Of a stretch of 64,000 nt of DNA, positions 14,387-61,165 are shown one piece after another (position 1 is the stretch's first letter; each line of letters starts with the position of its first letter). The notes beneath the pieces are model-generated. The model was not told the origin of the DNA. It searched no databases and saw only the letters and a program-made list of their open reading frames with translations. Both the position numbers and the translations under genes were made by a program. The stretch comes from Gammaproteobacteria bacterium (lineage in GTDB: Bacteria > Pseudomonadota > Gammaproteobacteria > JBCCGL01): the NCBI GenBank assembly GCA_965277715.1, contig OZ255836.1, forward strand, positions 3,936,001-4,000,000. The letters run 5' to 3'.

Positions 14387-14409
14387 ATAAATAAACTGAG
14401 AGAATATCC

Positions 14410-30037: not shown

Positions 30038-30075
30038 GGTGTGTTTGTTGGCGGCGCTATAGTCGGTTTAATGAC

Positions 30076-31029: not shown

Positions 31030-31067
31030 GGTGTGTTTGTTGGCGGCGCTATAGTCGGTTTAATGAC

Positions 31068-32084: not shown

Positions 32085-32157
32085 GGTGTGTTTGTTGGCG
32101 ACACTGCATAGCGATAACAAACGCCAGTCTACCATCTTCGTATAGGTAAACCATCAT

Positions 32158-32320: not shown

Positions 32321-32346
32321 ATCATGCACCTTCGTGGAGAATAACG

Positions 32347-32430
32347 TGTGAACCGGGAGACCCCTACCCACAACAGCTTGTGATTGAATGTGGAGGTTCT
32401 GCGCTCTCTTGATATAACCGCATGAGCCAA
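32347..32430 (+). pseudogene. Fused relics of the EthD-like gene and the pcaH 3' end
   Basis: 32347-32402 resembles 23965-24020, and TTGATATAACCGCATGAGCCAAGCAGTA resembles the end of pcaH (~25429-25456). Confidence 0.75.
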
Positions 32431-32447
32431 GCAGTAGGCTGTCGCCG

Positions 32448-32952: not shown

Positions 32953-32984
32953 AAGAGTTAACCTCGGTGGGTTATTTTTGTAGG

Positions 32985-34103: not shown

Positions 34104-34135
34104 GGATTATTGCTACGGTGGATCACATCAAACAA

Positions 34136-34177
34136 TTAAAACGACTTGGGTAACCCCAGTACATGTGTGGCGACATT
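34136..34177 (-). pseudogene. Last 42 bp of a deleted acyl-CoA dehydrogenase duplicate
   Basis: Matches 27006-27047, then jumps to the rpn downstream flank. Confidence 0.8.
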
Positions 34178-34195
34178 CGACGTCGGTTTAATGGC

Positions 34196-35191
34196 TTATT
34201 CAGAGTCGGGGTCAATGCCCGCCTTTTTCAGTAAGGCACGTAACCGCGTCTTTTCCTGAAACGCCGCCTCTTTCTGTCTGTGCGCTTCCTGTTCGTTTTT
34301 TAGTGCGGCTTCTTTTTGCCTATGTGCCTCCTGTTCGTTTTTTAGTGCGGCTTCTTTTTGCCTATGTGCCTCCTGTTCGTTTTTTAGCGCGGCTTCTTTT
34401 TGCCTGTGCGCTTCCTGTTCTTTTTTGAGGGCTTCCTGTTCCTTTTTTAACGCGACTTCTTTCTGCCTGCGTTCGTCGTTCATCGCCTTAACCGCCTCGC
34501 TTAGTGAACGCTGCCGGGACTTTTCCTCCCGAAGAATGTTCTGACGGGCCTGGTAAAGGTGGTAATCCTGCTCTTTCTCTGAAAATCGTTTCAATATGGC
34601 CATCGCCTGCCTCATTTCTTCGGTATCAAGGTCTGCGGGAAGCGCTTCCCACTTGTCTGCATCTCTGAAAAAATACATCCATTGGTCTTTCGCTTCAAGG
34701 TTGTGGTGCCGTCGCCACTTTTCCAGTTCCAGTACATGGATAGCGCAGTGGGGTGAAAGTACTCGCTGCTGCTCAAGATCCGCCATTTGAAAGCGGTGGT
34801 GATAACAGTCACTGTCCCTGAATAGATTTTCACCCAATAGCCAGATGGATATCGAGGGTTGCAGCTTGTGATAGTCCTGCCCACTTTGAATCTGTGCACC
34901 GTAAATATCACTCCAACAATACAGCATTCGCTCCGGTAGATAGGGGAATATATTTAATTGTAGCTCCACCTGGTAGGTGTTATTGGCCGCATCACGGGCT
35001 TTTATATCGACTATGGTGAGTTTGTCTGAAAGGTATTCCTTTTCGTTGTAGGGGTTGAGAATTTCAACGTCTGTGATTGGACTCTCAGGGGTGAGTACAC
35101 CATTGAGAAAGTGAATCAGCAACGGGATATTTTCCGGTGCGCCCAGGATGGCTTTAAAGACACAATCAATTTTTGGATCAATGAGGGGCAT
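34196..35191 (-). CDS. Rpn-family nuclease, copy 5 (331 aa; 4.5 tail repeats)
   Basis: Same nuclease domain; tail of HRQKEAALKNEQEA units plus an extra heptad LKKEQEA. Confidence 0.9.
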   Translation of the reverse strand: MPLIDPKIDCVFKAILGAPENIPLLIHFLNGVLTPESPITDVEILNPYNEKEYLSDKLTIVDIKARDAANNTYQVELQLNIFPYLPERMLYCWSDIYGAQIQSGQDYHKLQPSISIWLLGENLFRDSDCYHHRFQMADLEQQRVLSPHCAIHVLELEKWRRHHNLEAKDQWMYFFRDADKWEALPADLDTEEMRQAMAILKRFSEKEQDYHLYQARQNILREEKSRQRSLSEAVKAMNDERRQKEVALKKEQEALKKEQEAHRQKEAALKNEQEAHRQKEAALKNEQEAHRQKEAALKNEQEAHRQKEAAFQEKTRLRALLKKAGIDPDSE

Positions 35192-35406
35192 GGTGTGTTT
35201 GTTGGCGACACTGCATAGCGATAACAAACGCCAGTCTACCACCTTCGTATAGGTAAACCATCATGCACCCGCATGGAGAATAATGTATTGCACAGTAAAT
35301 TTTTAGTGGCTTTCAAATAACCGTTGTCTATTTCTTGGGTTCTCGCTGCTTAATATTGTAAATTATTGAAAGTTATTAATGCTATTAAACTTGGATGGGT
35401 ATATCG

Positions 35407-45555: not shown

Positions 45556-46977
45556 TTATTGACGCCATCCCCGTGCCATGTCGATGGCGCGTTTAAATTG
45601 CTTGTGGTATTTCCCAAAATCGCCATCGGGTTGATACGCTATTTCTGGCTGGTTATGCGGCTGTAGTGAAATTTTATCGGCACCGGCCAGTTGTGCAGTG
45701 CCTATCGCGGTGAGTTCTGCCATGGGTTTTACGCGCACAGTGCGGGATAACACATTGGCGAGAAACTGACAGAAGTAAGGGTTGACCGAGACACCGCCGT
45801 CAATGGAAATGCTGTCCGCTACGCGGGTGAAGGTGCTCATCGCGTCGATGACTTCGCCCGCCCGGAATGCCACGCCTTCGAGGATCGATTGCATAAGGTC
45901 CTGCTTTGTCGTCTCTAATGACAACCCTGCCCATATCCCCGCTGCCCGCCTGTCCCAATGCGGGCAGGCGAGTCCCGCCAACGCAGGGACAAACACGAGG
46001 TCTCGTTCAATTGCGGCGGGATGCTGGAATTGGTTGATTTGTGCGTAGTCGTCGAATAAGCCCATTTTCCGCCCCCATTCAACCGCTGACCCAGCACAGT
46101 AAACACCGCCATCAAGCGCATAAACTGGCGGGCTTTTGCTGTGTTGCCAGGCAATCGTGGGCAGTAGTCCCTGTTCCGGGGAGCGCTGTACGTCGCTACC
46201 GGTGATGCTTAATGCAAAGGCACCAGTGCCAAAGGTGATTTTGGCGTCTCCTTTATTGCGGCAGCCATGCCCATAAAGTGATGCCTGTTGATCGACGACG
46301 CTGGCCGTTACGGGAATACTGCGCCCCTGCGATGTTATCGTTGCCAGCGCGCCAGTGGTGGGTACTATTTCCGGTAGTGCGGCTAAAGGTACGTGAAATA
46401 GTGCGCAGAGTTCCCGGTCCCAGTGGCCGGTTTGCAGGTTCATCAATGCGGTTCTCGATGCGGTGGTGATATCGGTGATAAATTTCCCGGCCAATCGATC
46501 CATGAAAAAGGCGTCGGTGGTGCCCAGGCGCAATTTGCCCTGGTGCAATAGGGTTTTTGCCCCGGGTATGTGCGTGACTATCCAGGCTAACTTGCTCGCC
46601 GAAAAATATGGGTCGAGTGGCAATCCTGACAATTCCAGTACCCGCGCCTCGTGACCCGCTTTCCTGAGTTGTTCAATGTTTGATTGTGTTCGGTTATCCT
46701 GCCAAACGATGACCGGGCTAATGGCCTGTTTGGTCTCGGCGTGCCAGGCCAGACAGCTCTCACCCTGGTTATCGATACCCATCGCATCGACGGGCGGGCT
46801 TGTCGATAGGCAGGTTTCAATACTGGCAATCAATTCGTCTGGATCGTGTTCTACCCAACCCGGCTGCGGGTAGAATTGTCGATGCTTAACCACCTGGGTG
46901 ATGGTGACCCGGCCATCGTCGCCAACGCACAGTGCGCGGGTACTGGTGGTGCCCTGGTCTATTGCAAGAATTGGCAT
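45556..46977 (-). CDS. FGGY-family kinase, glycerol kinase-like
   Basis: AIDQGTTSTR, VWQDNRT, YFSASK, TTASRT, DQQASLYG and KITFGTG. Confidence 0.85.
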   Translation of the reverse strand: MPILAIDQGTTSTRALCVGDDGRVTITQVVKHRQFYPQPGWVEHDPDELIASIETCLSTSPPVDAMGIDNQGESCLAWHAETKQAISPVIVWQDNRTQSNIEQLRKAGHEARVLELSGLPLDPYFSASKLAWIVTHIPGAKTLLHQGKLRLGTTDAFFMDRLAGKFITDITTASRTALMNLQTGHWDRELCALFHVPLAALPEIVPTTGALATITSQGRSIPVTASVVDQQASLYGHGCRNKGDAKITFGTGAFALSITGSDVQRSPEQGLLPTIAWQHSKSPPVYALDGGVYCAGSAVEWGRKMGLFDDYAQINQFQHPAAIERDLVFVPALAGLACPHWDRRAAGIWAGLSLETTKQDLMQSILEGVAFRAGEVIDAMSTFTRVADSISIDGGVSVNPYFCQFLANVLSRTVRVKPMAELTAIGTAQLAGADKISLQPHNQPEIAYQPDGDFGKYHKQFKRAIDMARGWRQ

Positions 46978-47023
46978 GGTGACTCCATACGAGCGCCTAA
47001 ACCCGACAGGCTCCAGGCGCCGT

Positions 47024-47926
47024 TTAGTGATTGAATAACGTTCTGCGTACTGATTCGGTAATCGCCACTACGGCGGGGTGTTTGAGTTTGCGCTCGGTCG
47101 ATATGGCAAAGTAGGCTTCTTCGACTCCTTCAGCCGATCCAAGCCGCCGGGCGTGGTACATCAATGACACCTCATCAGTGATCACCGTTGGCGCTGGAAA
47201 CACACCAATCCCGGCCTGACCACAGGCTTTTAATAATGCGCTATCGTCAAATTCGGCAATAACACGAGGCACAATGCCCATTTGATCGAACCAGCTATCA
47301 AGGCTGTGCCGCAGTGCATTTTGAGGGGAGGGCAGTAACATGGGGGCCTGATCCAATGAGTGCGGAAAATGTTTACTGTAACGACGGGCAATGCGCGTAT
47401 GGGCAAAAAAACTGATAGCGCTCGAACCCAGCCGGTGGTTATACGCTTTAACGTGTGTGCCCGGTGGTATTGATCGATCTGAGATAATCAGGTCGAGTCG
47501 ATGAACTGCCAGGTCTGCCAGCAATGACGCTAAATCATTTTCGCTACAAACAATCCGCAGCGTCTCTTTCAATGAGAAGACCGGCTCGATCACGCGTAGC
47601 GCGATTATTTTTGCAATCGGATTGACAATCCCAACACGAAAGCTATCCACCATTAGTGTCTGTTTGCTCTTGACCCGTTGCGCTAGTTCACTGCCAAGAT
47701 TAAAAATTTCCTCGGCATAGTGATTGACAACGTGCCCCGTCTCTGTGAGCGCCAGGCCACGACCCATGCGATTAAACAACGGCTCGCCAATGGTGTGTTC
47801 AAGCAGTTTCAACTGACCGCTGATGGTTTGTGGTGTCAGGTGAAGTACCTCTGCCGCTTTCTTCACGCTCCCCTCGCGTGCCACCGTGCAAAAATACATC
47901 AGGTGAGTGTAATTAAGGTGTCGCAT
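47024..47926 (-). CDS. nhaR: LysR-family Na+-responsive activator NhaR
   Basis: LNYTHLMYF, LTPQTISGQ, EFDDSALLKA and ERKLKHPAV; divergent from the nhaA locus. Confidence 0.9.
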   Translation of the reverse strand: MRHLNYTHLMYFCTVAREGSVKKAAEVLHLTPQTISGQLKLLEHTIGEPLFNRMGRGLALTETGHVVNHYAEEIFNLGSELAQRVKSKQTLMVDSFRVGIVNPIAKIIALRVIEPVFSLKETLRIVCSENDLASLLADLAVHRLDLIISDRSIPPGTHVKAYNHRLGSSAISFFAHTRIARRYSKHFPHSLDQAPMLLPSPQNALRHSLDSWFDQMGIVPRVIAEFDDSALLKACGQAGIGVFPAPTVITDEVSLMYHARRLGSAEGVEEAYFAISTERKLKHPAVVAITESVRRTLFNH

Positions 47927-48136
47927 CTTTAGTATCGACGATTAAGTAATTTATTGGTGTACAGATAATTGATGTACTCTAGGGGAATGGGGTTAAGCGC
48001 CGAGGGCAATCGCAACCTTCTGGCCGTAAAGTAGCGTGCAGTGGTGAATGTAGTCATAGCAATCCCGGTATTGAATGATGGCAGTGTTTTTCACTCTTTT
48101 GAATGAGTATGAAAATCGATGTTTATCGATACTCAC

Positions 48137-48173
48137 TTCGAAAATATCGAATAGTAACATCGAAAACTACGTG
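48137..48173. promoter_or_regulatory. Putative NhaR (LysR T-N11-A) binding sites
   Basis: Dyad TTCGA-AAATA-TCGAA at 48137-48151, plus a weaker ATCGAAAACTACG 22 bp downstream, between nhaR and the next gene. Confidence 0.6.
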
Positions 48174-48241
48174 CCTTCGAGTCTTTTGACCGCTGTATAT
48201 TGGCAGCGTATTCAGTTTCTACTCACGACACGGTATTGCCA

Positions 48242-48577
48242 ATGGTTTCACGTATTCTAAAGCGAGTGCTATCGATTACGGTAGCGTTTATAGTATTTGG
48301 CTTTATCGATAATTTTTTTATGGTGATTTTTGGTAATCAGATCGATATAGCATTTATTACTATGGGGGTAACCAATACGATGCTGGCGGCTGGGTTGGGC
48401 AATACGCTGTCGGACGCTATTGGTATTTTATCTGGTCGCTGGGTGGAAAAACTGGTACACCTGAAGTTGCCGGTTCCCGACGATGGTTTGTTATCAAAAA
48501 ATCAAATTATTGCCGCAGAAACTTTTGGGATAATTGTCGGTTGTCTGATCGGTCTCTTTCCGTTGTTTATTTTATAA
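48242..48577 (+). CDS. TMEM65-family small membrane protein
   Basis: FGFIDN..M..G..ID, TMLAAGLGNTLSD and C-terminal GCLIGLFPL match the TMEM65 signatures as I recall them (FGFLDN, TMAAAALGNLVSD, GCILGMFPL). Confidence 0.8.
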   Translation: MVSRILKRVLSITVAFIVFGFIDNFFMVIFGNQIDIAFITMGVTNTMLAAGLGNTLSDAIGILSGRWVEKLVHLKLPVPDDGLLSKNQIIAAETFGIIVGCLIGLFPLFIL

Positions 48578-48680
48578 TGTTTTATATGTTTAAGGCGTTA
48601 GCACAGGTTTATCTTGTAATAAAAACTTACAAATTATATTTGTGTGAAAAATAGTTAAATTATTGAGTATTGTCTAAATT

Positions 48681-49880
48681 ATGAACACCAGAAGTGAATC
48701 ACTGCCCATCGCACAGGCGTTGCGCGATTTTATGAAACTTGAATCGGCTGCGGGAATTCTTTTATTGATCACCGCAGCGCTTGCCATGGTGGCAGCGAAT
48801 ACGCCCATGGTGGCGCTTTATAATAGCCTGTTAGATACGCCCGTGGCTTTTCAGGTCGGTGCATTGGTTATCCAGAAACCTCTGTTACTGTGGGTCAACG
48901 ATGGACTGATGGCCATTTTTTTCTTTCTTATCGGATTAGAGATTAAGCGCGAGTTTCTCGAAGGGGAGCTGTCGTCTGCCTCCCAAGTCATGCTACCGGG
49001 TATGGGCGCGCTTGGTGGGATGGTCGTACCGGCGGGAATCTATGCGTGGATTAACTGGAACGATGCAATTGCGTTGGATGGTTGGGCAATTCCGGTAGCG
49101 ACAGATATTGCATTTGCATTGGCACTATTGACTGTCTTTGGTAGGCGCGTGCCTATCGCGCTCAAAATCTTTTTACTGACGCTGGCTATATTTGACGATC
49201 TGGCGGCTATTGTCATCATTGCATTGTTTTATTCCGGTGACCTCTCGCTGACCGCTTTATTGGTTGGTGGTACCGCCTTGGCGATAGCCATCGGTATGAA
49301 CCGAATAGGCATCACGAGCACATCGGGTTACATTCTTTTGGGCGTTGTGTTGTGGGTGGCCGTGTTGAAGTCCGGCGTGCACGCAACGCTGGCCGGTGTG
49401 CTGTTGGCATTTTGTATTCCTATGCGTGATAAACAAGGCAATTCACCGTTGCGGGAATTGGAGCACAATCTGCACGGCCCCGTTGCGTTTGCGATCCTGC
49501 CTCTATTTGCGTTTGCGAATGCAGGCTTGCCGCTATTGGATGTAGGGTTGGACGATCTTTTTCATCCCGTTACCACGGGTATTGCCGTCGGATTGTTTTT
49601 GGGTAAGCCTGTAGGCATATTGCTGGTTGTCGGTTTGGCGGTGTTATTGAAGTGGGCTGCATTGCCAAAAGGCGTGACCTGGGGGCAGCTATTGGGTGTG
49701 TCATTCGCCTGTGGCATTGGGTTTACCATGAGTCTTTTTATTGCGGGCCTGGCATTTGAGCATGGCAGTGGTGATTATTATGCCGGTGACCGGCTCGGGA
49801 TAGTGGTTGGTTCTGTTTTATCCGCCGTTTTCGCCTACCTGGTATTGCACATCAGTTTGCCAAAATTGCGCAATAACTGA
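48681..49880 (+). CDS. nhaA: Na+/H+ antiporter NhaA
   Basis: WVNDGLMAIFF, GLEIKRE, ATDIAFA, LAIFDD, SGVHAT, FAFANAG and GIGFTMS. Confidence 0.97.
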   Translation: MNTRSESLPIAQALRDFMKLESAAGILLLITAALAMVAANTPMVALYNSLLDTPVAFQVGALVIQKPLLLWVNDGLMAIFFFLIGLEIKREFLEGELSSASQVMLPGMGALGGMVVPAGIYAWINWNDAIALDGWAIPVATDIAFALALLTVFGRRVPIALKIFLLTLAIFDDLAAIVIIALFYSGDLSLTALLVGGTALAIAIGMNRIGITSTSGYILLGVVLWVAVLKSGVHATLAGVLLAFCIPMRDKQGNSPLRELEHNLHGPVAFAILPLFAFANAGLPLLDVGLDDLFHPVTTGIAVGLFLGKPVGILLVVGLAVLLKWAALPKGVTWGQLLGVSFACGIGFTMSLFIAGLAFEHGSGDYYAGDRLGIVVGSVLSAVFAYLVLHISLPKLRNN

Positions 49881-49900
49881 GAATATATAAAACTCAACAC

Positions 49901-50470
49901 TTAATTCGCCATGAGCACCTGATCGATTGCGCTAATGATGTGATCCAAACCCTCATCAAGCCCTTTCATCTGATAGTGAATTCGCCCGTGTTTATCGAGC
50001 ACAGTGATCATATTGGAATGCGCAATATCATTCCCCTCACTATCCATCGGTTTATAGCGCACACCAATTAGCGCCGATAGTTCTAATACATCGTCGGGGT
50101 CGCCGTTTAGTATGTTCCAGACACCGTTTACCAGGGTGTGATCGCGCATGTAGCGAACCAGAACATCGGGTGTGTCACGCACTGGGTCGAGCGATATTAA
50201 CAAAAATTGAATGTGCTTTTTTTGTTCTGCCGATAACGTCGCCTCTAGACTTTTTAACCTGGCTAGAATAATCGGACAACTGTGTTCACAGTAGGTATAG
50301 ATAAATGCTACAACCTGCACTTTGCCAGTAAAATCGCTGATTGTGATTGGGGTGCTATTTTGATCGACCCAATTGGAATTAGCGTGATAGATCGAATCAC
50401 CGGGTAACTCGGCAGCGATAGCGTATCCAGGGAAGAAAAATATCAGCAGAAATAATTTAATTGTTTTCAT
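49901..50470 (-). CDS. SCO1/SenC copper chaperone
   Basis: YTYCEHSCP (CxxxC), ISLDPVRD and HSN. Confidence 0.9.
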   Translation of the reverse strand: MKTIKLFLLIFFFPGYAIAAELPGDSIYHANSNWVDQNSTPITISDFTGKVQVVAFIYTYCEHSCPIILARLKSLEATLSAEQKKHIQFLLISLDPVRDTPDVLVRYMRDHTLVNGVWNILNGDPDDVLELSALIGVRYKPMDSEGNDIAHSNMITVLDKHGRIHYQMKGLDEGLDHIISAIDQVLMAN

Positions 50471-51293
50471 TGTCATGCCCCCTAGAATTGGTTGCTGTGG
50501 CATCGTCACTGTCTGTATTTTTTGCGCAGCGAAACCCCAGTGATTCCATTGTGTAACTCGCCCGGTAACTGCTGCGCAAGGCGTATCGCATAAACGCGGC
50601 ATAATCACTCGGATCGATCGCAGCGGCTGCACCTGCACCGCAAAATAATTGGCTTTCCAATTGTGTATCACCACGGGATTCTCCCGTCACCAGTGCGGTA
50701 TTAAAATCACTCACTAACTCCCATACGATGCCGTGCATACCGTGGACTCCCCAGAAATTGGCGGGTGTATCGTCAATATTGGGTAGTGGATCGCTTGCCG
50801 GTCTGGCGTACCAGTCGAGTATTGTGCGCTGAAATTGTGGGTCTTCATTACCGTTTGCAGCACTGGCGCTCGCCTGGGCGGCGAATTCCCACTCGCCGGT
50901 TGATGGCAGGCGTTTACCGAGTGATTTGCAATAGGCGCGTGCCGCAAACCACGGGATATTCACCACAGGCTGGTTGGCGACAGCGGGAAAACTCTCTGCC
51001 GATAGATGTTTTAGGTAATTTGCGTCGCTGAAAATGGGTTTTATATTGTGTTTTTTCCAACGGGGGACTTTATCAGTGAAGGCAAGATAGTCCTTATTGC
51101 TAACTGCAAATCGATCGAGTACAAATGCGTTAATCTCAATGTCGCTGGAACCGTCGGCGCGCTTGAACAACGGTGAGTAGCGCCCACCAGGTATCAATAC
51201 CATCGTGTCACTGGCGTGTACTGCCCACGAATGTGCAATTAAAAGCAGGCCACCGCACCATGCCGTGGCCCGCTTTCTGTACAGCGCGTTCAT
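50457..51293 (-). CDS. Formylglycine-generating enzyme family (NirV-like) periplasmic protein
   Basis: PVVNIPWFAARAYC, RLPSTGEWE, MHGIVWE and LGFRCA. Confidence 0.85.
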   Translation of the reverse strand: MNALYRKRATAWCGGLLLIAHSWAVHASDTMVLIPGGRYSPLFKRADGSSDIEINAFVLDRFAVSNKDYLAFTDKVPRWKKHNIKPIFSDANYLKHLSAESFPAVANQPVVNIPWFAARAYCKSLGKRLPSTGEWEFAAQASASAANGNEDPQFQRTILDWYARPASDPLPNIDDTPANFWGVHGMHGIVWELVSDFNTALVTGESRGDTQLESQLFCGAGAAAAIDPSDYAAFMRYALRSSYRASYTMESLGFRCAKNTDSDDATATNSRGHDNENN

Positions 51294-51297
51294 CGTC

Positions 51298-52722
51298 TCA
51301 GTGCTGTGCGCGTTTTGCGGCAACTTGCTGTGGTGTAATTTCACCGCCGTTGTTACCCCAGCTGTTCAAGATGAAAGTCAGCACATTGGCCATTTTTTCA
51401 TCACCTAGCTGTACCGCAGGCATAATGCCTTTATAGTTTTGTCCATTGACGGTAATTTTTCCTGACAAACCTTTTAGCAATACGTCGATTGCACGTGATG
51501 GGTCGCTTAGTAAGTAGTCTGAACCGGCGAGTGGTGGAAACGCGTTTGTAATACCCGTGCCGTTTGCCTGGTGGCAGGCGGCACAGTTTTGTTGATACAC
51601 GCGTTCACCAAATAAAATGCGCTCGGATTTATTTTTAGCGCCTGCGGCGGGGATACCACTGGCAATTGTTTGTATACCCCCACCTTCGGGTAGGTACACA
51701 GTCTCCTGTTGTTTACCTGAATAAATTACCGAATCGTCTGCGCCGTTGACTTTCAACATACCCAGCGCACCTTTGTTAAATGCGCGGAAAATAGCGTGAT
51801 CGACGAGGATAAATGTACCCGGCACATCGACGCGAAACTCGACCACCACGGAGCCACCTGCGGGCACCAGTGTCGATTGCACGTTGTGATTAATCAGGTC
51901 ACCGCCTTCAACGTAGACATTATCAAAAATTTCGCCGATCACGTGAAATGATGAAACTAAATTAGGGCCGCCATTGCCCACGAATAAGCGCACTGTTTCA
52001 CCGACATTAGCGGTTATCGCATTATCGCCCGCCATCGCTCCGACCGAACCATTGAACACAACATAATCAGGTATTTCGCTGAGCGCTTTTTGCATATCGA
52101 AGGGTTGCAAACCTTCTTCACCGTAACCCCCGTGCGTGTAAAATTCGCTTTGCATCACGTAATATTCTTTATCTACTTTGGGTAGCCCATCTTCTGGCTC
52201 AACCAAAATCAGCCCGTACATACCGTTGGCAATATGCATACCGACCGGCGCCGTTGCGCAATGGTAAACATACAGGCCGGGGTTGATTGCTTTAAATGAA
52301 AACTGTGAAGAGTGGCCGGGTGCGGTGAACGAGGACGTCGCGCCGCCGCCAGGCCCGGTTACTGCGTGTAAATCAATATTGTGGGGCATTTTGCTGGTCG
52401 GGTGATTGTTGAGATGAAACTCGATTTCATCGCCTTCACGAACGCGGATAAAATGGCCTGGCACATCACCACCAAATGTCCAGAAAGTGTATTCAACACC
52501 ATCGGAAAGCCGTCCGACTTTCTCTATTGTATCCAGGTTGATAATCACCTTCGCCGGATAGTTCCGCGTAATGGGTGGCGGTACCTGCGGTGCCACGGTG
52601 AGTTGTGCATGTTCTTCGGGCAATGCCGCGTTAGCGACTGAGAAGTATGACATTGCCAGTACAACAGACAGGGCTTTTAACCACGGCTCGATACATCTCG
52701 ATTGCGCTTTCTCACGTTTCAT
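51298..52722 (-). CDS. nirK: Copper nitrite reductase with C-terminal cytochrome c domain
   Basis: [31 protein letters not shown] and VDH copper ligands; heme motif CAACH. Confidence 0.95.
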
Positions 52723-52906
52723 TTTCAATACCCTCAAGGTGAGTAATTTTTCTCATAGATACTTGCGTATCTTGGCCATTTAGAAATATTGTGATTTGGG
52801 CAGGTCGATGTTTTAAAAATTGAAAGTTCGATCAGGCGCACCTGTATTAATACCCACGACCATAATCTCTTCACTTAATTATTAATGGCTGTACCGTTTT
52901 AGGATA

Positions 52907-53171: not shown

Positions 53172-54848
53172 CTAAAACAACCCCTCAACAACGCCCGCAT
53201 CATTAATGCGAATATGATTGGCCGAAGGCACACGCGGCAACCCAGGCATGGTCATAATGTCACCGCAAACCACTACCATAAACTCCGCTCCGGCAGATAA
53301 ACGCACGTCGCGAATCGAGACGGTGTGGCCACTGGGCGCGCCCATCAATGTCTGGTCGGTAGAGAAGCTGTACTGGGTTTTGGCCATGCACACAGGAAAA
53401 TGACCGTGGCCAGCATTTTGAAACCCCTCGATTTTTTGGCGGACCTTGTTGTCGGCAATAATACCTTCAGCCCCGTATAGTTTGGTGGCGATGGTTTCGA
53501 TTTTGTCCCATAGTGGCATTTCATCAGGGTACAGCGGTGCAAACTGGCTGCTGTCACTGTCGGCAATCTCTGCCACCCGGTGTGCCAATGCCTCGGCACC
53601 TGCGCCACCATCCGCCCAGTGCTTACACACAAACGCTTCACTGCCAACAGCGGCGACGGCCTCCTGGATGGCGGCGACTTCCGCCTCGGTGTCACCCGAG
53701 AAGTGGTTGATGCCAACCACAGCCGGTACGCCAAAGCTGTTGACGTTGCTAATATGGCGCAGGAGGTTGGCGCAGCCTTGTTTTACGGCATCGACATTTT
53801 CTGGCCCCAGCTCGGTTTTGGCGACCCCACCGTGCATTTTTAATGCACGCACCGTCGCGACGATGACAACCGCACTTGGCGCCAATCCGGCTTTGCGGCA
53901 TTTGATATCGAAGAATTTCTCAGCACCGAGATCGGCACCAAAACCGGCTTCGGTGACAACGTAGTCGGCCAGGCTCAGTGCGGTTTTGGTGGCGACGACG
54001 GAGTTACAGCCGTGGGCGATGTTGGCAAATGGGCCGCCGTGGATAAGTACCGGGTTGTTTTCCAGTGTTTGTACCAGATTGGGGTGGAAGGCTTCACGCA
54101 GTAATACGGTCATGGCGCCGTGAGCGTCGAGCTGGCGGGCAGTGACGGGCTGCATATCGCGGGTGTGGGCAACGACGATGTTGCCGAGGCGGTTTTCCAG
54201 GTCTTCGAGGTCGCTTGCCAGGCAGAATATGGCCATGACTTCAGAGGCCACGGTGATGTCGAAGCCGTCTTCACGTGGAAAGCCATTACCGGGGCCGCCG
54301 AGCGAGATGGCCGCCTGGCGCAGGGCGCGGTCGTTCATATCGAGTGCACGGCGCCATTGAATGCGGCGGGAGTCGATGTTGAGTGCGTTGCCCCAGTGGA
54401 TGTGGTTGTCGAGCAGGGCGGCGAGCAGGTTGTTGGCGGCACCGATGGCATGAAAGTCACCGGTAAAGTGTAGGTTGATGTCTTCCATCGGTACGACTTG
54501 TGCGTAGCCACCACCCGCCGCGCCACCTTTTACACCAAATACCGGGCCAAGACTGGGTTCACGCAGGGCCATTATGGCGTTTTTGCCGATGCGATTGAGG
54601 GCGTCACCCAGGCCGATAGTGGTAGTGGTTTTACCTTCACCCGCTGGTGTGGGAGAGATGGCGGTAACCAGGATCAGCTTGCCGTCGCGCTGGTTTTCAC
54701 CCAGCTTATCGGTGAGGATTTTTGCCTTGTGAGGGCCAAATTGGTAGAGCGCTTCGGCGGGTATATTGGCTTTGCCAGCAATGCTGTTAATCGACTGCAT
54801 ACTGGCAGCGCGGGCGATTTCTATATCGGTTTTTACTTCGTTGGCCAC
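53172..54848 (-). CDS. fhs: Formate--tetrahydrofolate ligase
   Basis: [36 protein letters not shown] and MTMPGLP. Confidence 0.97.
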
Positions 54849-55217
54849 AGTGGTTACCTCGGTTGTCTATAAAGGTGAGCGGGGTCAATGGGGTGTGCCT
54901 TAACCGCCCGGTTGATTCTGGTTTTTTAGATTGAAGATTCAAAAAGTGGGTTGCCAAGTGTCCGCAGCCCCCCCGTATATTAACGCTGGCATTATACGTT
55001 TTCAGGTTTTTATATGATTGGTGCTAAAACGCCTGTTTTTTGTGTGGGGCGGCCATAGGGTTTATCAATCAGCCGATTGGTTGGCGATTGGTTGGCGATT
55101 GGGTTTTAGTAAAATATTTTCCGGCACTTTCTACAGCAGGGTGCAGAGGAGGGGGATCCCCTGAAAGACTCGCGTTCTTAGTCGGCATTTTCTAGGCGTA
55201 CTGTTTTTAGCACTTTT

Positions 55218-55302
55218 TTGGTAGTGAGGCATTGTTAACTTTTCCAGGTGTGCCAAGGGCTTTTGCCGGGTTTCATTTTGTTCGGTAACTGCGTTTTCCA
55301 GG
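55218..55302. repeat. Degenerate partial relative of the family C MITE
   Basis: 55238-55262 matches 32261-32285 at 24/25 positions; ends in GTTTTCCAGG, like the MITE right end. Confidence 0.6.
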
Positions 55303-55483
55303 TTTAGGTGAAAGAGGATCTGCTTCCAGGCGGCTATCAGGTTTCAGTGTGCCTGGTATTGGCGTAAGCGGGTAACCCCGTGTCGTTTGAGTGCTAGTTT
55401 ATTCGTATTTGACGCCTTAGCATCCGCCGACTGCGGTCGCTATATTGTACCGCTTAGTGAATTTAGCCTTGGAGGTATCAAGC

Positions 55484-56197
55484 ATGTCCGACGAAGAGCA
55501 AATGGATGACGATATTGATTTAGCATCGTTACCCGATGATGAGTTGGTCGAGCAAATGCACGACGATCTTTACGACGGTTTGAAAGAAGAGATCGAAGAG
55601 GGCACGAATATTCTATTGGGCCGTGGTTGGGCCGCAGATAAGGTGTTGGCCGAGGCACTGGTCGGCGGTATGACGATTGTCGGCATCGATTTTCGCGATG
55701 GCATTTTGTTTGTGCCCGAGGTGTTGATGGCGGCCAACGCGATGAAAGGTGGCATGGCCATATTGCGCCCATTGCTGGCGGAAACCGGCGCCGAGTCGGT
55801 GGGCAGTATGGTAATTGGCACGGTGAAGGGCGATATTCACGACATCGGCAAAAACCTGGTGGGAATGATGATGGAGGGCGCGGGCTTTGAAGTGTTCGAC
55901 CTCGGCATCAATAATCCGGTGGAGGATTATCTGGCGGCGCTCGAAGAACACAAACCGGAAATCCTCGGTATGTCGGCGCTGTTGACCACCACCATGCCCT
56001 ATATGAAAGTGGTTATTGATGAGCTTAAAGCCAAAGGCCTGCGTGACGATTATATTGTGCTTGTTGGTGGCGCGCCGCTAAATGATGAATTTGGCCAGGC
56101 GATTGGTGCCGATGCGTATTGCCGCGATGCCGCTGTAGCGGTTGAAACCGCCAAGGCGCTGGTGCTTGAGCGGCGTGAAAAATTAAAATCCGCCTGA
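55484..56197 (+). CDS. Cobalamin-binding corrinoid protein
   Basis: GDIHDIG (DxHxxG), SALLTTT and VGGAP; GGAGGT SD; very acidic N-terminus. Confidence 0.93.
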   Translation: MSDEEQMDDDIDLASLPDDELVEQMHDDLYDGLKEEIEEGTNILLGRGWAADKVLAEALVGGMTIVGIDFRDGILFVPEVLMAANAMKGGMAILRPLLAETGAESVGSMVIGTVKGDIHDIGKNLVGMMMEGAGFEVFDLGINNPVEDYLAALEEHKPEILGMSALLTTTMPYMKVVIDELKAKGLRDDYIVLVGGAPLNDEFGQAIGADAYCRDAAVAVETAKALVLERREKLKSA

Positions 56198-56218
56198 TTG
56201 CACTGCTGTGTTATCCCG

Positions 56219-56415
56219 AGCACACCGGCTACCTTATATTGACGGGTTCAGCGCAACGCCCAACAAATTAATGTTACACGACGGGTTAGCCCACAGACAC
56301 CCCAGAACTGGGTTGTTTTTACTCACCATAACACCACTATGGCTGCGTAAAAACGCCTTGCTCTGCCACGCTTGTGGGCTAACTGAACCCGACAATAGCA
56401 GGCAGACAGTGTGCT
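56219..56415. mobile_element. 197-bp MITE-like element (family B) with 33-bp imperfect terminal inverted repeats
   Basis: 56219-56251 versus 56383-56415 are complementary at 27/33 positions. Nested stems GTTAGCCCACA/TGTGGGCTAAC and GTTTTTAC/GTAAAAAC. Confidence 0.7.
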
Positions 56416-56448
56416 AGTACTTTCTTCCCTGGCTATAAGCATGCAACG

Positions 56449-57147
56449 ATGAACAGCACATCTGAAACGGTGATTATCGCGTGTGGCGCACTGGCACGTG
56501 AAATCACCGCGCTGATAAGCGTCAATAACTGGCAGCATCTGCGCATTGAGTGCCTGCCCGCCAGGTTGCACAACACCCCGCTGGAGATCGCCCCGGCGGT
56601 GCGCGAGAAAATCCATCACCTTCATGGACTGGGCCACACCCGGTTATTTGTCGCCTACGGTGATTGCGGTACGGGCGGTGCACTGGATCGTGTGCTTGAG
56701 GAAGAGGGCATCGAGCGTTTACCGGGGCCACACTGCTACTCTTTCTTTGCCGGTGAGGCGGCGTTTGAAGCGCTGCACAACGCCGAGCTTGGTACGTTTT
56801 ACCTCACCGATTTTCTGGTACGTCACTTTGACCGCCTGATTATTCGCGATATGGGAATCGAAAAACATCCCGAGTTGTTGCCTATGTACTTTGGCAATTA
56901 TAAAAAACTGGTGTACCTGGCGCAGACCGACGATGCGGCACTGCGCGATCAGGCACAACAGGCAGCCCGGCGTTTGGGGCTGGCGTACGAATACCATGCG
57001 ACCGGTTACGGCGGTCTGCATGCCGCATTAAACACGCTGGCCACGCGGCCACCCGACGCTGTTGCCCATCGAACTGCCCACCGGGCTGATCACCAGGTTG
57101 ATCACCAGGCCACTCACCAACAGGAAACCATTACATGGCACGCATGA
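56449..57147 (+). CDS. DUF1638-family protein
   Basis: IIACGALARE, LHNTP, YGDCGTGG, HCY and FYLTDFL; typical of corrinoid methyltransferase clusters. Confidence 0.85.
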   Translation: MNSTSETVIIACGALAREITALISVNNWQHLRIECLPARLHNTPLEIAPAVREKIHHLHGLGHTRLFVAYGDCGTGGALDRVLEEEGIERLPGPHCYSFFAGEAAFEALHNAELGTFYLTDFLVRHFDRLIIRDMGIEKHPELLPMYFGNYKKLVYLAQTDDAALRDQAQQAARRLGLAYEYHATGYGGLHAALNTLATRPPDAVAHRTAHRADHQVDHQATHQQETITWHA

Positions 57148-57434
57148 CCGTTGTTTATTGGCGTGATATTCCCGCGCAAGTCATCGTTAAGCAGGGTCGT
57201 CAATCGGCCAAGGCAAAACTCTCTGAGCGTTTTGAGCACGGTATCGACCGCGCCGCGATGCGGGCGGGCCGTGGCGGCAGTGATGCCTACCTGGAGGATT
57301 GGCGCCGCGAGAATGAAGACTGTGGCAGCGGTGATATGCAGGCGTTGGCGGATGCACGCGCCGCCGGGCTGGAAGCCGAATACGATGCCGTGCGGCTGGA
57401 AAAATTAGTAAAGGCGGGCGGTAACGCTGAATAA
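57135..57434 (+). CDS. Small conserved protein ('Virulence factor' family) of corrinoid clusters
   Basis: YWRDIPAQV, IDRAAM and YLEDWR. Confidence 0.8.
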   Translation: MARMTVVYWRDIPAQVIVKQGRQSAKAKLSERFEHGIDRAAMRAGRGGSDAYLEDWRRENEDCGSGDMQALADARAAGLEAEYDAVRLEKLVKAGGNAE

Positions 57435-57574
57435 AAGATGTGGATTGTAGGCCATGTCGCCGATACGTATGAAGTAGGCCATTGATGCATAGCATCTGTG
57501 GGCCAAGGTGATGAAAATCCCGTCGGTTTACAACGCAGATTTGTAACCCTAAAAAACGCACTATAGAGAAGCTG

Positions 57575-57616
57575 AATACCCCCAAATGGATGGATATCCA
57601 TTTGGGGGTATTTTTT
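57575..57616 (+). terminator. Strong hairpin plus U-tract immediately upstream of the methyltransferase SD
   Basis: 17-bp perfect stem AATACCCCCAAATGGAT/ATCCATTTGGGGGTATT running into a T tract. Confidence 0.65.
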
Positions 57617-57628
57617 GAGGATTTGAAT

Positions 57629-58528
57629 ATGACAGATACAGTGGTCGGCTCCGCCAGTAAAGAGGTGGTTATTGGCTTTGAACGACCGTTTGTGATTATT
57701 GGCGAACGCATTAACCCCACCGGGCGCAAAATTCTCGCCGCTGAAATGAAAGCGGGGGATTACACGCGGGTTGAGGCGGATGCTATCGCACAGGTAAAGG
57801 CGGGCGCGCACATGCTCGATGTCAACGCGGGCATTCCGCTGGCCGATGAACCGGCGATTCTCGCCGAGGCGATCCAGCGTGTGCAGGCGTTGACCGATAC
57901 CCCGCTGTGTATCGATTCCTCGATTGTCGAGGCACTGGAGCGCGGCTTATCGGTTTACAATGGCAAAGCGCTGGTAAATTCAGTGACCGGTGAAGACGAG
58001 CAAATGGAGCGGGTATTGCCGCTGGTGGCAAAATACGGTGCCGCCGTGGTGGCGATTTCCAACGATGAGACCGGCATATCTGAAGACCCAAACGTGCGCT
58101 TTGAAGTGGCGAGGAAAATCGTCAACCGCGCCAGTGATTACGGTATTCCGGCGTGTGATGTGGTGGTCGATCCACTGGTTATGCCTATCGGCGCCATCAA
58201 CACGGCCGGTGTGCAGGTGATGGCATTGATTCATCGCCTGAAACACGAGCTAAAGGTCAACAGCACCTGCGGCGCGTCTAATGTCAGCTTTGGTCTGCCC
58301 AACCGCAACGGCGTTAACTCGGCGTTTTTGACGATGGCGATTGCGGCGGGGCTGACCTCGGCGATTACCAACCCACTGCACGAGGAAGTCCTGCTGGCGA
58401 CACGGGGCGCCGATGTGATGATGGGCCATGACCCCAACTGCGCCCGCTGGATCAGCCATTACCGCGAACCGCCCGCTGAGGGTGCAGAAGGAGGGCGGGG
58501 TAACCGCCGCAGGCGCCGCGCCTCATAG
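57629..58528 (+). CDS. Methyltetrahydrofolate:corrinoid methyltransferase (pterin-binding domain)
   Basis: IIGERINPTG, LDVNAG, IDSS, VDPLV and GASNVSFGLP. Confidence 0.92.
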   Translation: MTDTVVGSASKEVVIGFERPFVIIGERINPTGRKILAAEMKAGDYTRVEADAIAQVKAGAHMLDVNAGIPLADEPAILAEAIQRVQALTDTPLCIDSSIVEALERGLSVYNGKALVNSVTGEDEQMERVLPLVAKYGAAVVAISNDETGISEDPNVRFEVARKIVNRASDYGIPACDVVVDPLVMPIGAINTAGVQVMALIHRLKHELKVNSTCGASNVSFGLPNRNGVNSAFLTMAIAAGLTSAITNPLHEEVLLATRGADVMMGHDPNCARWISHYREPPAEGAEGGRGNRRRRRAS

Positions 58529-58578
58529 CGCTGGCACGGCACGTAATCCACACCACACTCACTGATAGGGGATAGGCA

Positions 58579-58989
58579 ATGGCTGATAACAACATAACCG
58601 GCACAGGCCGTTGCCTTTGCGGGGCGATACGCTATACCGTTCACGGCCCTCTGCGCAAGGCGATCGCCTGTCACTGCAAACAGTGTCAGCGCGCCTCGGG
58701 GGCCTATTTTATGGCCACCAACGCCGCGCTCGACGCGGTGAAAATCGACGACTCGGCGAATACGCTGCAATGGTTTCGCGACCCGGAAGGTGATTGGGCC
58801 GAGCGTGGTTTTTGCAGCCGTTGCGGTTCCAATCTCTTCTGGAAGCGCGATGGTGCGGGCACCTTAAGCATCACCGCAGGCACCCTGGATGACCCCAGTG
58901 GCTTAGAACTGATAAAACATATCTTTGTCGATTACAAAGGTGGTTACTACACAATTAATGACGGCCTACCGCAGCACCCCGAAAGCTGA
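58579..58989 (+). CDS. GFA family (glutathione-dependent formaldehyde-activating-like) protein
   Basis: GRCLCG, CHCKQC and FCSRCGS. Confidence 0.88.
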   Translation: MADNNITGTGRCLCGAIRYTVHGPLRKAIACHCKQCQRASGAYFMATNAALDAVKIDDSANTLQWFRDPEGDWAERGFCSRCGSNLFWKRDGAGTLSITAGTLDDPSGLELIKHIFVDYKGGYYTINDGLPQHPES

Positions 58990-59027
58990 TACAAAGGGGC
59001 TGGAGACTACGGCGCTGGCGAGGGCTT

Positions 59028-59117
59028 TTAACCTAAATTCCGCAGTTGAATTGTAGCGAGGGCGTCTAAGGTGCTGAAGGTGGTCGCAGTAGACTCAACT
59101 GCGGAATTTAGGTTTAA
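59028..59117. repeat. Family A element, long copy (90 bp)
   Basis: TTAACCTAAATTCCGCAGTTGA ... TCAACTGCGGAATTTAGGTTTAA around a unique core. Confidence 0.88.
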
Positions 59118-59143
59118 GGCACCCTCTTATCGGAGAATATTGT

Positions 59144-61165
59144 ATGACTGATGACGCGCAAGTCGTGTTTACCCCCTCTGGCCGCCGTGGCCGCTTTGCC
59201 CAGGGCACCTCGGTGCTGGAGGCGGCACGTGCGCTGGGCGTCGACCTGGACTCGGTCTGTGGTGGCCGCGGCCTGTGTGGCCGCTGCCAGGTGATACAGA
59301 GTGTAGGCGAGTTTTCCAAGCACGGTATCAGCTCAAAAAAGACACACCTCTCTGCGTTCAGCCGCACCGAACAAGCCTACGAAAAACGCAATAGCCCACT
59401 GGTCGATGCGCGCAGGCTGGGGTGTTCGGCAAAGATCGAGGGCGATGTGGTGATCGATGTGCCTGCCGACAGCCAGGTACACCGCCAGGTGGTGCGCAAG
59501 CGCGCCGAGGTGCGCGACATCAACGTCGACCCGGTGGTGCGCCTGTATTACGTCGAAGTACAGGAACCCAATATGTACGACCCGACCGGTGATTTCAAGC
59601 GCCTGATCCAGGCGCTTGAATTTGAATGGCGGCTGACCGACCTGCGCTGGGGGGATCTGCGGGTGTTGCAGCGCTTACAGGCAAAATTGCGTGAGGGTGA
59701 GTGGAAGGTCACCGTCGCGGTGCACAACAACAACCAGGTAATCGGTGTTTGGCCGGGGTTTGTCGACCGCGTGTATGGCGTGGCGGTGGACCTTGGCTCG
59801 ACCACCATAGCGGCGCATTTATGTGACCTGTCCAGTGGTGAAGTGCTCGCCTCCGGCGGCGTAATGAACCCCCAAATTCGCTTTGGTGAAGACCTGATGA
59901 GCCGGGTTTCCTATGTGATGATGAACCCGGATGGGGTCGATGAAATGACCCGCGTTGTACGCGCCTCACTGGTCGAACTCACCCGTGAAATTGCCGCTGA
60001 AGCCGGGGTGAAAACCCGCGATATTATGGAGTACACCATCGTCGGCAACCCGGTGATGCACCACCTGCTGCTCGGCATCAACCCCATCGAACTGGGCGGC
60101 GCACCGTTTGCGCTGGCCACCGATGACGCTGTGCGCGTCTGGGCGGGTGAGCTGGACCTCGACATCCACCGCAATGGCCGCGTTTACGTACTACCCTGCA
60201 TCGCCGGGCATGTCGGCGCGGATGCCGCTGCCGTGTTACTCTCTGAGGCGCCGCACCTGCGCGAGGAAGTCTGCCTGATCGTCGATGTGGGCACCAATGC
60301 AGAGATTATTCTGGGCAATAACCGACGCCTGCTGGCGGCCTCCAGCCCCACCGGCCCGGCCTTTGAAGGCGCGCAAATTAGCTGCGGACAGCGCGCTGCC
60401 CCCGGTGCGATAGAGCGTGTACGCATCGACCCTGAAACACTGGAACCCAAATACAAAGTCATCGGTTGCGACTTGTGGTCAACCGATGAAGGCTTTGCCG
60501 AGGCGTCCAAAGTAGTGGGCGTCACGGGAGTCTGCGGTTCCGGGATCATCGAAGTCGTCGCGGAAATGTTCCTCGCCGGGATCATCACCGAGGATGGTGT
60601 GATCGATGGCGCCTGCGCCGGGCGCAATGCCCGTATCCACGCAGACGGGCGCACCTTCTCCTACCTACTACACACGGGCGATGTCGAACTGAAGATCAGC
60701 CAGAACGATATCCGCCAGATCCAACTGGCTAAGGCCGCGCTGTATGCCGGGGTGCGTTTGCTGATGGATCATATGTACATCGATAGCGTCGAGCGGATTC
60801 GCCTGGCGGGGGCATTTGGCAGTCATATCGACGTGAAATACGCCATGGTGCTGGGCATGATTCCCGATTGCAAACTGCAACACGTCACCTCGGCGGGCAA
60901 CGCAGCGGGCACCGGGGCGCGCATCGCCCTGCTGGACAAAAACTCCCGTGAGGAATTGGAATTACTGGTGCGCGATGTAGAGAAAATCGAAACAGCCGTT
61001 GAACCAAAATTTCAGGAACACTTTGTCGATGCGATGGCGATTCCACATAAAACCGCTGCATTTGTCCAGCTTGGCCACGTGGTTAAGTTGCCGCAACCGT
61101 CGGCAAAACCCGCCAGCAACCAGGACGATGATGGGCGTCGGCGTCGGCGCGCACGCAAACGGTAG
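59144..61165 (+). CDS. ASKHA-domain corrinoid reductive activator (RACo/RamA-like, DUF4445) with 2Fe-2S domain
   Basis: CGGRGLCGRC, VDLGSTT, VDVGTNAE, GPAFEG, GVCGSG, LAGAFG and GNAAG. Confidence 0.92.
   Translation: MTDDAQVVFTPSGRRGRFAQGTSVLEAARALGVDLDSVCGGRGLCGRCQVIQSVGEFSKHGISSKKTHLSAFSRTEQAYEKRNSPLVDARRLGCSAKIEGDVVIDVPADSQVHRQVVRKRAEVRDINVDPVVRLYYVEVQEPNMYDPTGDFKRLIQALEFEWRLTDLRWGDLRVLQRLQAKLREGEWKVTVAVHNNNQVIGVWPGFVDRVYGVAVDLGSTTIAAHLCDLSSGEVLASGGVMNPQIRFGEDLMSRVSYVMMNPDGVDEMTRVVRASLVELTREIAAEAGVKTRDIMEYTIVGNPVMHHLLLGINPIELGGAPFALATDDAVRVWAGELDLDIHRNGRVYVLPCIAGHVGADAAAVLLSEAPHLREEVCLIVDVGTNAEIILGNNRRLLAASSPTGPAFEGAQISCGQRAAPGAIERVRIDPETLEPKYKVIGCDLWSTDEGFAEASKVVGVTGVCGSGIIEVVAEMFLAGIITEDGVIDGACAGRNARIHADGRTFSYLLHTGDVELKISQNDIRQIQLAKAALYAGVRLLMDHMYIDSVERIRLAGAFGSHIDVKYAMVLGMIPDCKLQHVTSAGNAAGTGARIALLDKNSREELELLVRDVEKIETAVEPKFQEHFVDAMAIPHKTAAFVQLGHVVKLPQPSAKPASNQDDDGRRRRRARKR

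Follow-up and report, generated by a model that had tools for sequence, protein, structure and literature searches.

A TMEM65-family protein of 111 residues encoded between nhaR and nhaA in a gammaproteobacterial genome: a candidate small cation exchanger

What does a bacterial relative of a mitochondrial membrane protein do between a Na+-responsive regulator and a Na+/H+ antiporter? This question is raised by a stretch of 64,000 nucleotides from a sponge-associated Gammaproteobacteria bacterium (assembly GCA_965277715.1, contig OZ255836.1, positions 3,936,001 to 4,000,000), hereafter called the window. A small gene of the window, the TMEM65-like gene (48242..48577), lies between nhaR and nhaA. 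Its open reading frame (ORF) is a real gene and encodes a true, domain-only member of the TMEM65 family. It is a minimal prokaryotic form, new to a known and currently debated family. We tentatively propose, from its sequence and context, that the protein is an autonomous small cation exchanger of the Na+/Ca2+ type, which would form an NhaR-controlled unit with nhaA and would not be a subunit of NhaA. A full-text literature search, which did not cover Zhang et al. 2025, found no paper linking TMEM65 with bacteria or NhaA.

The Pfam search showed that the protein matches the TMEM65 model PF10507 at an E-value of 9.2e-20 and 71.1 bits (cut-off 25). The match covers profile positions 3–107 of 109, which is essentially the whole model. 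Twelve residues precede the domain, and the C-terminus of the protein is the domain end. No NCBIfam model matches the protein. The sequence-only reading of this stretch, made without database searches, had described a 111-aa protein with three hydrophobic segments between divergent nhaR and co-oriented nhaA. It had called the protein a minimal prokaryotic TMEM65 that matches the core of the family, on account of the motifs FGFIDN, AAGLGNTLSD, and GCLIGLFPL. The ORF, the helices, the neighbours, and the family assignment were confirmed, and the motifs were located at residues 19–24, 49–58, and 100–108.

The AlphaFold2 model of the monomer, built from a 25-sequence alignment, showed helices at residues 2–40, 46–75, and 86–104. 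The mean predicted local distance difference test score (pLDDT) was 88.3 and the predicted template modelling score (pTM) was 0.78. The third transmembrane helix (TM3) carries a glycine zipper, G96xxxG100xxxG104, in which G100 and G104 are invariant. The N-terminus and the TM2-TM3 loop (loop 2) contain seven lysine and arginine residues and the opposite side contains none, which should fix the topology as N-in under the positive-inside rule. The Foldseek comparison of the monomer with the PDB gave 26 rows at E ≤ 10 and none at E ≤ 0.001. Searching the PDB by sequence revealed no solved structure of the family; the only matches were chance ones to adrenergic receptors at E 0.3–0.57.

The ATG of the ORF is the start position in all aligned homologues; an in-frame TTG at 48200 would extend the protein by 14 residues to 125 aa. 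The window was present in sponge-metagenome runs of three other studies at 61–88% of the sampled words. No RNA run contained the region 47000–49900. The order nhaR-TMEM65-nhaA was intact in contigs from two of these sponge-metagenome studies. These single contigs span 46500–50500 with 20 and 24 differences, no insertions or deletions, and no joint skipping the TMEM65-like gene. Three differences lie inside the ORF (48253, 48337, and 48461), and all are synonymous.

The role of TMEM65 in mitochondria is under debate: the protein may itself be the mitochondrial Na+/Ca2+ exchanger, or it may be a helper of NCLX (PMC13483046). Purified TMEM65 in liposomes is reported to perform Na+-dependent Ca2+ exchange and to be a homodimer (PMC13254257, PMC12830682); PMC13254257 cites a report of the homodimer and of the liposome reconstitution. 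The experimental data on the family describe Na+- and Li+-dependent Ca2+ efflux (PMC13254257, PMC12830682). The activity of human TMEM65 is reported to need D132, D167, G170, and E178, the mutants G140L and Q195E are described as wild-type-like, and a glycine-zipper mutant was not expressed (PMC12830682). The mutagenesis primers of the same paper place D132 within FGFLDN and D167 and G170 within LGNLVSDLAG.

The residues were mapped from the text and primers of PMC12830682. Eukaryote-type representatives carrying the primer strings showed that human D132, D167, and G170 correspond to D23, D58, and G61 of the window protein. Human E178 corresponds to E69, by an ungapped offset of +11 from the aspartate. 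All four residues reported as required are present. When the window protein was aligned with long eukaryote-type members and with members from bacteria and phages, 16 positions were invariant: F19, G20, F21, D23, N24, G31, A50, L52, G53, N54, S57, D58, G61, G100, C101, and G104.

Conserved acidic residues in the membrane suit any cation site. The protein could serve a different ion pair, as a channel or a transporter (for example Ca2+/H+, Li+/H+, or a leak of K+ or Mg2+), and be co-regulated with nhaA in a general response to salt and alkaline stress instead of in a Na+/Ca2+ circuit. We regard this as distinctly unlikely. It would agree with the report that E. coli NhaR also controls genes outside Na+ export (PMC6307784), and with the EF-hand, C2, GAF, and PAS fusions of the family, which point to Ca2+ or regulatory inputs and leave the counter-ion unfixed. 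On the other side, the Na+- and Li+-dependent Ca2+ efflux mentioned above is the sole experimental result reported for the family, and the four residues that it requires are conserved here.

The position of the gene suggests a link with Na+ homeostasis. The features of the locus are the following:

47024..47926, minus strand: nhaR, for a Na+-responsive activator of the LysR type, transcribed divergently from the TMEM65-like gene (equivalog model NF008284 of NCBIfam, 234.3 bits against a cut-off of 219)
48115..48130: perfect 6-4-6 dyad ATCGATGTTTATCGAT, in an AT-rich region with many dyads, significance not established
48138..48150, plus strand: candidate NhaR box TCGAAAATATCGA (T-N11-A), 11/13 match to the E. 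coli NhaR consensus
48186..48214, plus strand: tentative promoter TTGACC-17-TATTCA, placed by eye
48242..48577, plus strand: TMEM65-like gene, 111 aa from ATG, three transmembrane helices, domain only
48578..48680, plus strand: spacer between the TMEM65-like gene and nhaA, 103 nt, 22% GC, with an AT-rich hairpin at about 48602–48644 that has no U-tract
48681..49880, plus strand: nhaA, complete Na+/H+ antiporter (PF06965 positions 2–374 of 374, E 7.6e-141; NCBIfam NF007112, 532 bits)

The window NhaR has the HTH_1 and LysR_substrate domains. Overall it shares 35% identity with E. coli NhaR, conservation being much higher in the N-terminal HTH stretch, and the window NhaA is 55% identical to E. 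coli NhaA. The TMEM65-like gene occupies the target-gene position of the divergent NhaR, and an NhaR-like box lies upstream of it. A LysR-type dyad had been noted there from the sequence alone. The dyad meant was probably ATCGATGTTTATCGAT; both it and TCGAAAATATCGA are present, and there is a statistical basis for the second only. The consensus TCgaAAAAatCtA was proposed for E. coli NhaR in a study that calls its own sites hypothetical (PMC6307784). With this provisional E. coli consensus and at most two mismatches, the 64-kb window contained four matches against 1.31 expected, and 5 of 100 shuffles reached four. The candidate box is the only such match in the 315-nt spacer between nhaR and the TMEM65-like gene, in which about 0.006 would be expected by rough arithmetic. 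No such match occurs between the TMEM65-like gene and nhaA. The candidate box ends 92 nt before the ATG of the TMEM65-like gene; in E. coli K-12, 91 nt separate the nhaA start codon from the end of the nearest upstream match, TCGTAAAAAACGA. A second TCGAAAA heptamer is located at 48160–48166, 22 nt downstream of the candidate box.

The tentative promoter has an alternative −10 element, TATATT, at 48196–48201, and a consensus promoter scan gave no plus-strand promoter at 48186..48214. No terminator-like site was predicted between the TMEM65-like gene and nhaA. The RNA fold of the 103-nt spacer had an energy of −24.4 kcal/mol and a z-score of −1.98. No Rfam family, including the Na+ riboswitches, reached the gathering score in the window, and the region 47850–48750 gave one sub-threshold mt-tmRNA match only (E 1.3). 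Since an NhaR-like box lies upstream and no terminator precedes nhaA, an NhaR-controlled TMEM65-nhaA operon is plausible. The sequence suggests a probable NhaR-dependent promoter before the TMEM65-like gene, with read-through into nhaA.

The neighbourhood of the gene was surveyed in 110 related loci, all of which were covered by tblastn with the window NhaA and NhaR. NhaA was found once and NhaR was never found. The single case was locus L001 of genome G001, in which nhaA (2564–3763) is followed after 38 nt by the TMEM65 homologue (3802–4137), so that the order is reversed relative to the window. The TMEM65 proteins of L001 and the window are 69% identical and the NhaA proteins 52%, which indicates that the two pairs do not represent a single cassette shared recently. 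In G001 the NhaR orthologue is on a different contig from the pair. This locus, L112 (G001:C188, 1135–4987), contains an NhaR orthologue 49% identical to that of the window, divergent from an S30AE/hibernation-factor-like gene that is followed by Bax1-I, a membrane protein of the TMBIM/BI-1 family. The NhaR gene of L112 is convergent with a Proton_antipo_M (Mrp/Nuo-type) gene. The motifs common to the window spacers and the spacers of L001 and L112 were only short AT-rich words.

Among the ten other loci of the close clade, nhaA adjoins the homologue in one, or in 2/11 with the window. One further nhaA adjacency in ten loci has a chance probability of roughly 0.5–0.8%, taking one or two nhaA genes per 2,500–5,500 genes. 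The association of nhaA with TMEM65 is real enough to take seriously and is not a property of the whole family. The gene could still have landed between nhaR and nhaA by chance after horizontal acquisition, with a function unrelated to Na+ homeostasis and with nhaA keeping its own control. We consider such an accident unlikely. The independently arranged pair in L001, with its 38-nt gap and a chance below 1% in ten loci, argues against it. So do the NhaR-like box, which lies upstream of the TMEM65-like gene and not in the spacer before nhaA, the lack of a terminator-like site between the two genes, and the stable arrangement with synonymous ORF changes across the sponge metagenomes. It is favoured by the varying neighbours among close relatives and by the spacer before nhaA, which has dyads and a hairpin and is possibly the control region of nhaA itself.

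The other close-clade loci had diverse neighbours. These were an MFS gene in L002, FtsZ in L003, an amine oxidase and EamA in L004, AzlC/AzlD in L005, a KdsB-like gene in L009, and a gene of the CCA/poly(A) polymerase family in L010. The contigs of L002 and L003 end 286 and 119 nt past the homologue, which leaves their downstream side uncovered. A paralogue of 6,7-dimethyl-8-ribityllumazine (DMRL) synthase lies directly upstream of the homologue in L006–L008. In these three loci of the Poriferihabitaceae type (L006 5399–6321, L007 5394–6318, and L008 5281–6321), the DMRL-synthase paralogue is conserved 5–25 nt upstream on the same strand. A further candidate pair in G002, with the TMEM65 and nhaA genes on abutting contigs, was rejected, because the contigs do not overlap and another small ORF lies upstream of nhaA.

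The distant loci were mostly phage-like or eukaryotic, and 142 of their 245 neighbour ORFs were scanned with Pfam. The 103 unscanned ORFs were picked by hand and were mostly near-duplicate loci and small ORFs. The scanned neighbours included one bestrophin and, on a viral contig of 429 kb, one CDF cation-efflux protein. The CDF gene, in L098, is two genes downstream of the TMEM65-like gene. The expectation that homologues would be enriched near Na+ transport genes did not hold: nhaA occurred at 1/110 loci, and the 142 scanned distant neighbours included no Na+/H+ antiporter. The nhaA link is local to a few lineages, and a Na+ link is plausible in the window lineage and one other.

Does the protein need NhaA? 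PF06965 was detected in four of the nine carrier genomes (G001, G002, G004, and G009) and was not detected in G003, G005, G006, G007, and G008. Among 31 relatives of G006, nine had NhaA, and none of the four TMEM65 carriers did. An accessory or regulatory subunit that tunes the activity, stability, or pH response of NhaA, similar to the proposed regulation of NCLX by TMEM65, would fit the adjacency to nhaA in the window and in L001. In one preprint, a partner exchanger is likewise proposed to mediate the action of mammalian TMEM65 (PMC10592617). This role, which had been offered from the sequence alone, is very unlikely given the counts above (4/9 carriers, and 0/4 carriers among the G006 relatives) and the adjacency in only 1/10 other close-clade loci. 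In addition, G002, G004, and G009 hold the NhaA and TMEM65-like genes on different contigs, the window NhaA is complete and ordinary, and family members occur in phages and eukaryotes without an adjoining NhaA. An obligate NhaA accessory is not supported.

The carriers were also searched for the CaCA family (PF01699) of Na+/Ca2+ or H+/Ca2+ exchangers. Matches were found in 3/9 carriers, and 6/9 had none; the same search gave a match in 11/14 control genomes. The match in G007 covers a frame of 141 aa that is interrupted by two in-frame TAG codons. Among the relatives of G006, an intact CaCA gene was present in 0/4 TMEM65 carriers and in 16/27 non-carriers (hypergeometric P 0.043, for four carriers that may be a single lineage). 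The NhaA and CaCA counts indicate that the TMEM65-like protein needs neither an NhaA nor a CaCA exchanger. It is a possibility that the protein stands in for CaCA in the carriers. A comparison by hhalign detected no sequence relation between TMEM65 and CaCA (probability 0.04). In G002 the next gene after nhaA on the same strand encodes a CaCA protein, which provides a precedent for nhaA paired with a Na+/Ca2+-type exchanger. This locus, L111 (G002:C253, 2–3070, minus strand), contains a small hydrophobic ORF of about 100–142 aa that is not TMEM65-like, nhaA at 1407–2597, and the CaCA gene at 2–1228, which runs off the contig. The TMEM65-like gene of G002 lies elsewhere.

The distribution of the family bears on the origin of the gene. 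The word-seeded search gave 57 homologues among 66 candidates, all with PF10507. They were 61–195 aa long, nearly all about 111 aa, and most came from metagenomes. They include P0001, 85% identical and on a 50.9-kb contig, and P0006, P0010, and P0043, whose contigs measure 480–744 kb. The profile search of 1.84 billion cluster representatives gave 1,952 TMEM65 members at E ≤ 0.001. Most of the best 150 were 200–800 aa long, and only about 15 were of minimal size. The long members carry EF-hand, GAF, C2, and PAS domains. Among P0089, P0094, P0097, P0111, P0067, and P0070 are fusions to GAF and C2 (with or without PAS) or to EF-hands, and two of these proteins, P0067 and P0070, have tandem TMEM65 domains. 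P0070 has two PF10507 domains with an extra hydrophobic segment between them, giving a 3+1+3 layout; in an attempted alignment over both halves, all 64 other sequences aligned to its second domain. The FastTree analysis used 212 domain sequences, 69 of them from proteins of ≤135 aa; of these 69, 61 grouped with the window protein in one pure clade (Shimodaira–Hasegawa-like support 89). The next supported node added 22 long forms and a few minimal forms of the phage type. With its few columns and lack of a root, the tree gives no direction of transfer.

The close relatives are very rare. The pattern scan of one genome per species over 185,579 species confirmed nine loci. The nine carrier records are labelled Gammaproteobacteria (two of them Candidatus Poriferihabitaceae), one Alphaproteobacteria, and two Campylobacterota. 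PF10507 matched in 0/14 control genomes. The TMEM65-like gene was found in 4/31 relatives of G006 and 1/31 relatives of G001, and these were only the carriers already known. One of 50,697 phage records had a homologue, the 349-kb Vibrio phage 2.275.O (MG592671.1, 194145–194450), and 72,556 plasmid records had none. Homologues were present on 21 viral contigs. TMEM65-like genes lie on large phage and giant-virus contigs of up to 429 kb (L011/L090, L012/L091, L094, L097, L098, and others). Many metagenomic copies are about 270–300 aa long and have an N-terminal extension without a Pfam match.

The base composition of the gene is unusual in the window. Its GC content of 0.40 is the lowest of the 53 window ORFs of at least 100 aa (mean 0.525, standard deviation 0.04). 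Its third-position GC content (GC3) of 0.41 is tied for the lowest (mean 0.567, standard deviation 0.072). The GC content of nhaR and nhaA is 0.51, and the spacers flanking the TMEM65-like ORF are AT-rich. In addition, 68%-identical TMEM65-like proteins occur in metagenome-assembled genomes (MAGs) labelled as different phyla. The low GC content, the patchy distribution, the similarity across phyla, and the viral copies suggest that the gene was probably acquired horizontally. The same observations, with the homologues in the jumbo Vibrio phage and large viral contigs, also agree with the accidental insertion weighed above. Among five searched NhaA-bearing relatives of G006, NhaR was found in one, 24 kb from nhaA, and no insertion scenario for the TMEM65-like gene could be reconstructed from the G006 relatives. 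A probable horizontal acquisition means that the context in the window is informative about this lineage and not about the ancestral role or origin of the family. The claim of the sequence-only reading that the locus gives genomic-context evidence for an ancestral Na+ role is thus not supported for a gene that is so rare (nine loci in 185,579 species), patchy, and compositionally foreign in the window.

We return to the autonomous cation exchanger as the tentative answer. The protein would insert N-in with three transmembrane helices, and the TM3 glycine zipper would pair two protomers into a parallel homodimer of six helices. The 3+1+3 layout of P0070 would keep its two domains parallel and is a hint for a parallel dimer. 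The membrane-embedded acidic and polar cluster of D23/N24, N54/T55/S57/D58, and E69 may be the cation site. Cation exchange at this cluster would most likely be of Na+ (or Li+) for Ca2+, the activity reported for mitochondrial TMEM65. After its presumed horizontal acquisition, the gene would now head a TMEM65-nhaA transcription unit under NhaR control. Ca2+ could be driven out by the Na+ gradient, which points inward in sea water, and the Na+ entering in exchange would be expelled again by NhaA. This would be the same two-limb Na+ circuit as in mitochondria, with the protein working alone and not as an NhaA subunit. The dimer, the ion specificity, the co-transcription, and the control by NhaR are steps that we infer.

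Several points weigh against the proposed exchanger. The induction of a Na+-importing exchanger at high cytoplasmic Na+ would be physiologically awkward. The neighbours are unrelated in 9/10 other close-clade loci, and the scanned distant neighbours were without a Na+/H+ antiporter. No NhaR box was present upstream of nhaA in L001 or in the nhaR spacer of G001. A single E. coli study with hypothetical sites supplies the NhaR consensus (PMC6307784), and the window NhaR shares only 35% identity with the E. coli protein. An attenuator or a promoter of nhaA's own could lie in the 103-nt spacer with its hairpin. The short linker of P0067, the other tandem form, would invert its second domain, although this form may be a gene-model artefact. 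The carriers are MAGs whose completeness was not given, so a missing NhaA or CaCA is not proof of absence, and the CaCA difference among the G006 relatives may reflect a single lineage.

A bolder form of the proposal is somewhat unlikely as a whole. It holds that the 111-aa protein is the smallest natural Na+/Ca2+ exchanger, a 2 × 3 helix homodimer unrelated to CaCA, which replaces a missing CaCA in these marine and sponge-associated bacteria and is co-expressed with NhaA under NhaR. If this were true, a single operon would encode the entire two-limb Na+ circuit by which mitochondria export Ca2+. The TMEM65 core alone would be a transporter, and the field would gain a bacterial model that is easy to handle and a path towards a structure. 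The window protein is a bacterial, core-only form with all residues reported as essential, its relatives occur in carriers without detectable CaCA or NhaA, and it is wired to nhaA in two lineages. Together these observations form an independent, genome-based argument for an autonomous cation-transport role. The protein is also a small target for expression, flux assays, and structural work, and it could serve as a model of the debated mitochondrial Na+/Ca2+ exchanger.

Other genes of the window were recorded as well. Directly after nhaA, on the minus strand (49901–52737), are genes for a SCO1/SenC copper chaperone, a protein with an FGE-sulfatase domain, and a multicopper oxidase. The oxidase is copper nitrite-reductase-like and has a C-terminal cytochrome c domain, giving an apparent nirK-type cluster. 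Methylated-amine and one-carbon genes are located around the locus at 10565–16827 and 53172–61162. They encode an MttB-family methyltransferase, DAO/GcvT fusion dehydrogenases, a formate-tetrahydrofolate ligase, a corrinoid protein, a pterin-binding methyltransferase, and a RACo activase, and they are consistent with the lifestyle of a sponge symbiont. Five paralogous PD-(D/E)XK_2 'transposase' (Rpn-like) genes lie on the minus strand at 28179–35242. Four are in tandem at 28179–32135 and the fifth is at 34199–35242; a family III CoA-transferase gene interrupts the series.

The locus can be compared with four known systems. The E. coli nhaA-nhaR locus and the window share an NhaR equivalog, a complete NhaA, and a TCG-N7-CGA candidate box equally far from the first start codon. 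In E. coli, nhaR is downstream of nhaA and co-oriented with it, whereas in the window nhaR is divergent and an extra gene stands between the box and nhaA. The CaCA exchangers (PF01699; YrbG, NCX_Mj, and NCLX) would have the same proposed job as the window protein. A single CaCA chain contains about ten helices and inverted repeats, whereas the window protein has three helices per chain.

SemiSWEET is a three-helix bacterial protomer of about 100 aa that pairs to form a transport path, and the SWEET or fused forms have a 3+1+3 layout. The window protein is like them in architecture only, and the layout of P0070 can be compared with theirs. There was no fold match to them in the Foldseek search of the PDB, their substrate differs, and the sequences are unrelated.

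The closest known system is mitochondrial TMEM65. The window protein differs from it as the 109-position core alone, without the presequence or matrix extension and without the poly-acidic C-terminal tail of mammalian TMEM65. The targeting extension and the acidic tail lie outside PF10507 and are not expected in bacteria. The TM2-TM3 loop of the window protein is about seven residues shorter. Unlike mitochondrial TMEM65, the window protein is encoded by a bacterial chromosomal gene in an operon-like unit with nhaA. The two proteins share the full match to the family model, the three transmembrane helices, and the TM3 glycine zipper. They also share the motifs FGF(I/L)DN, LGNxxSD, and GCLxGxxPL, the equivalents of the four required residues, and, by the positive-inside rule, an N-terminus on the cytoplasmic or matrix-equivalent side.

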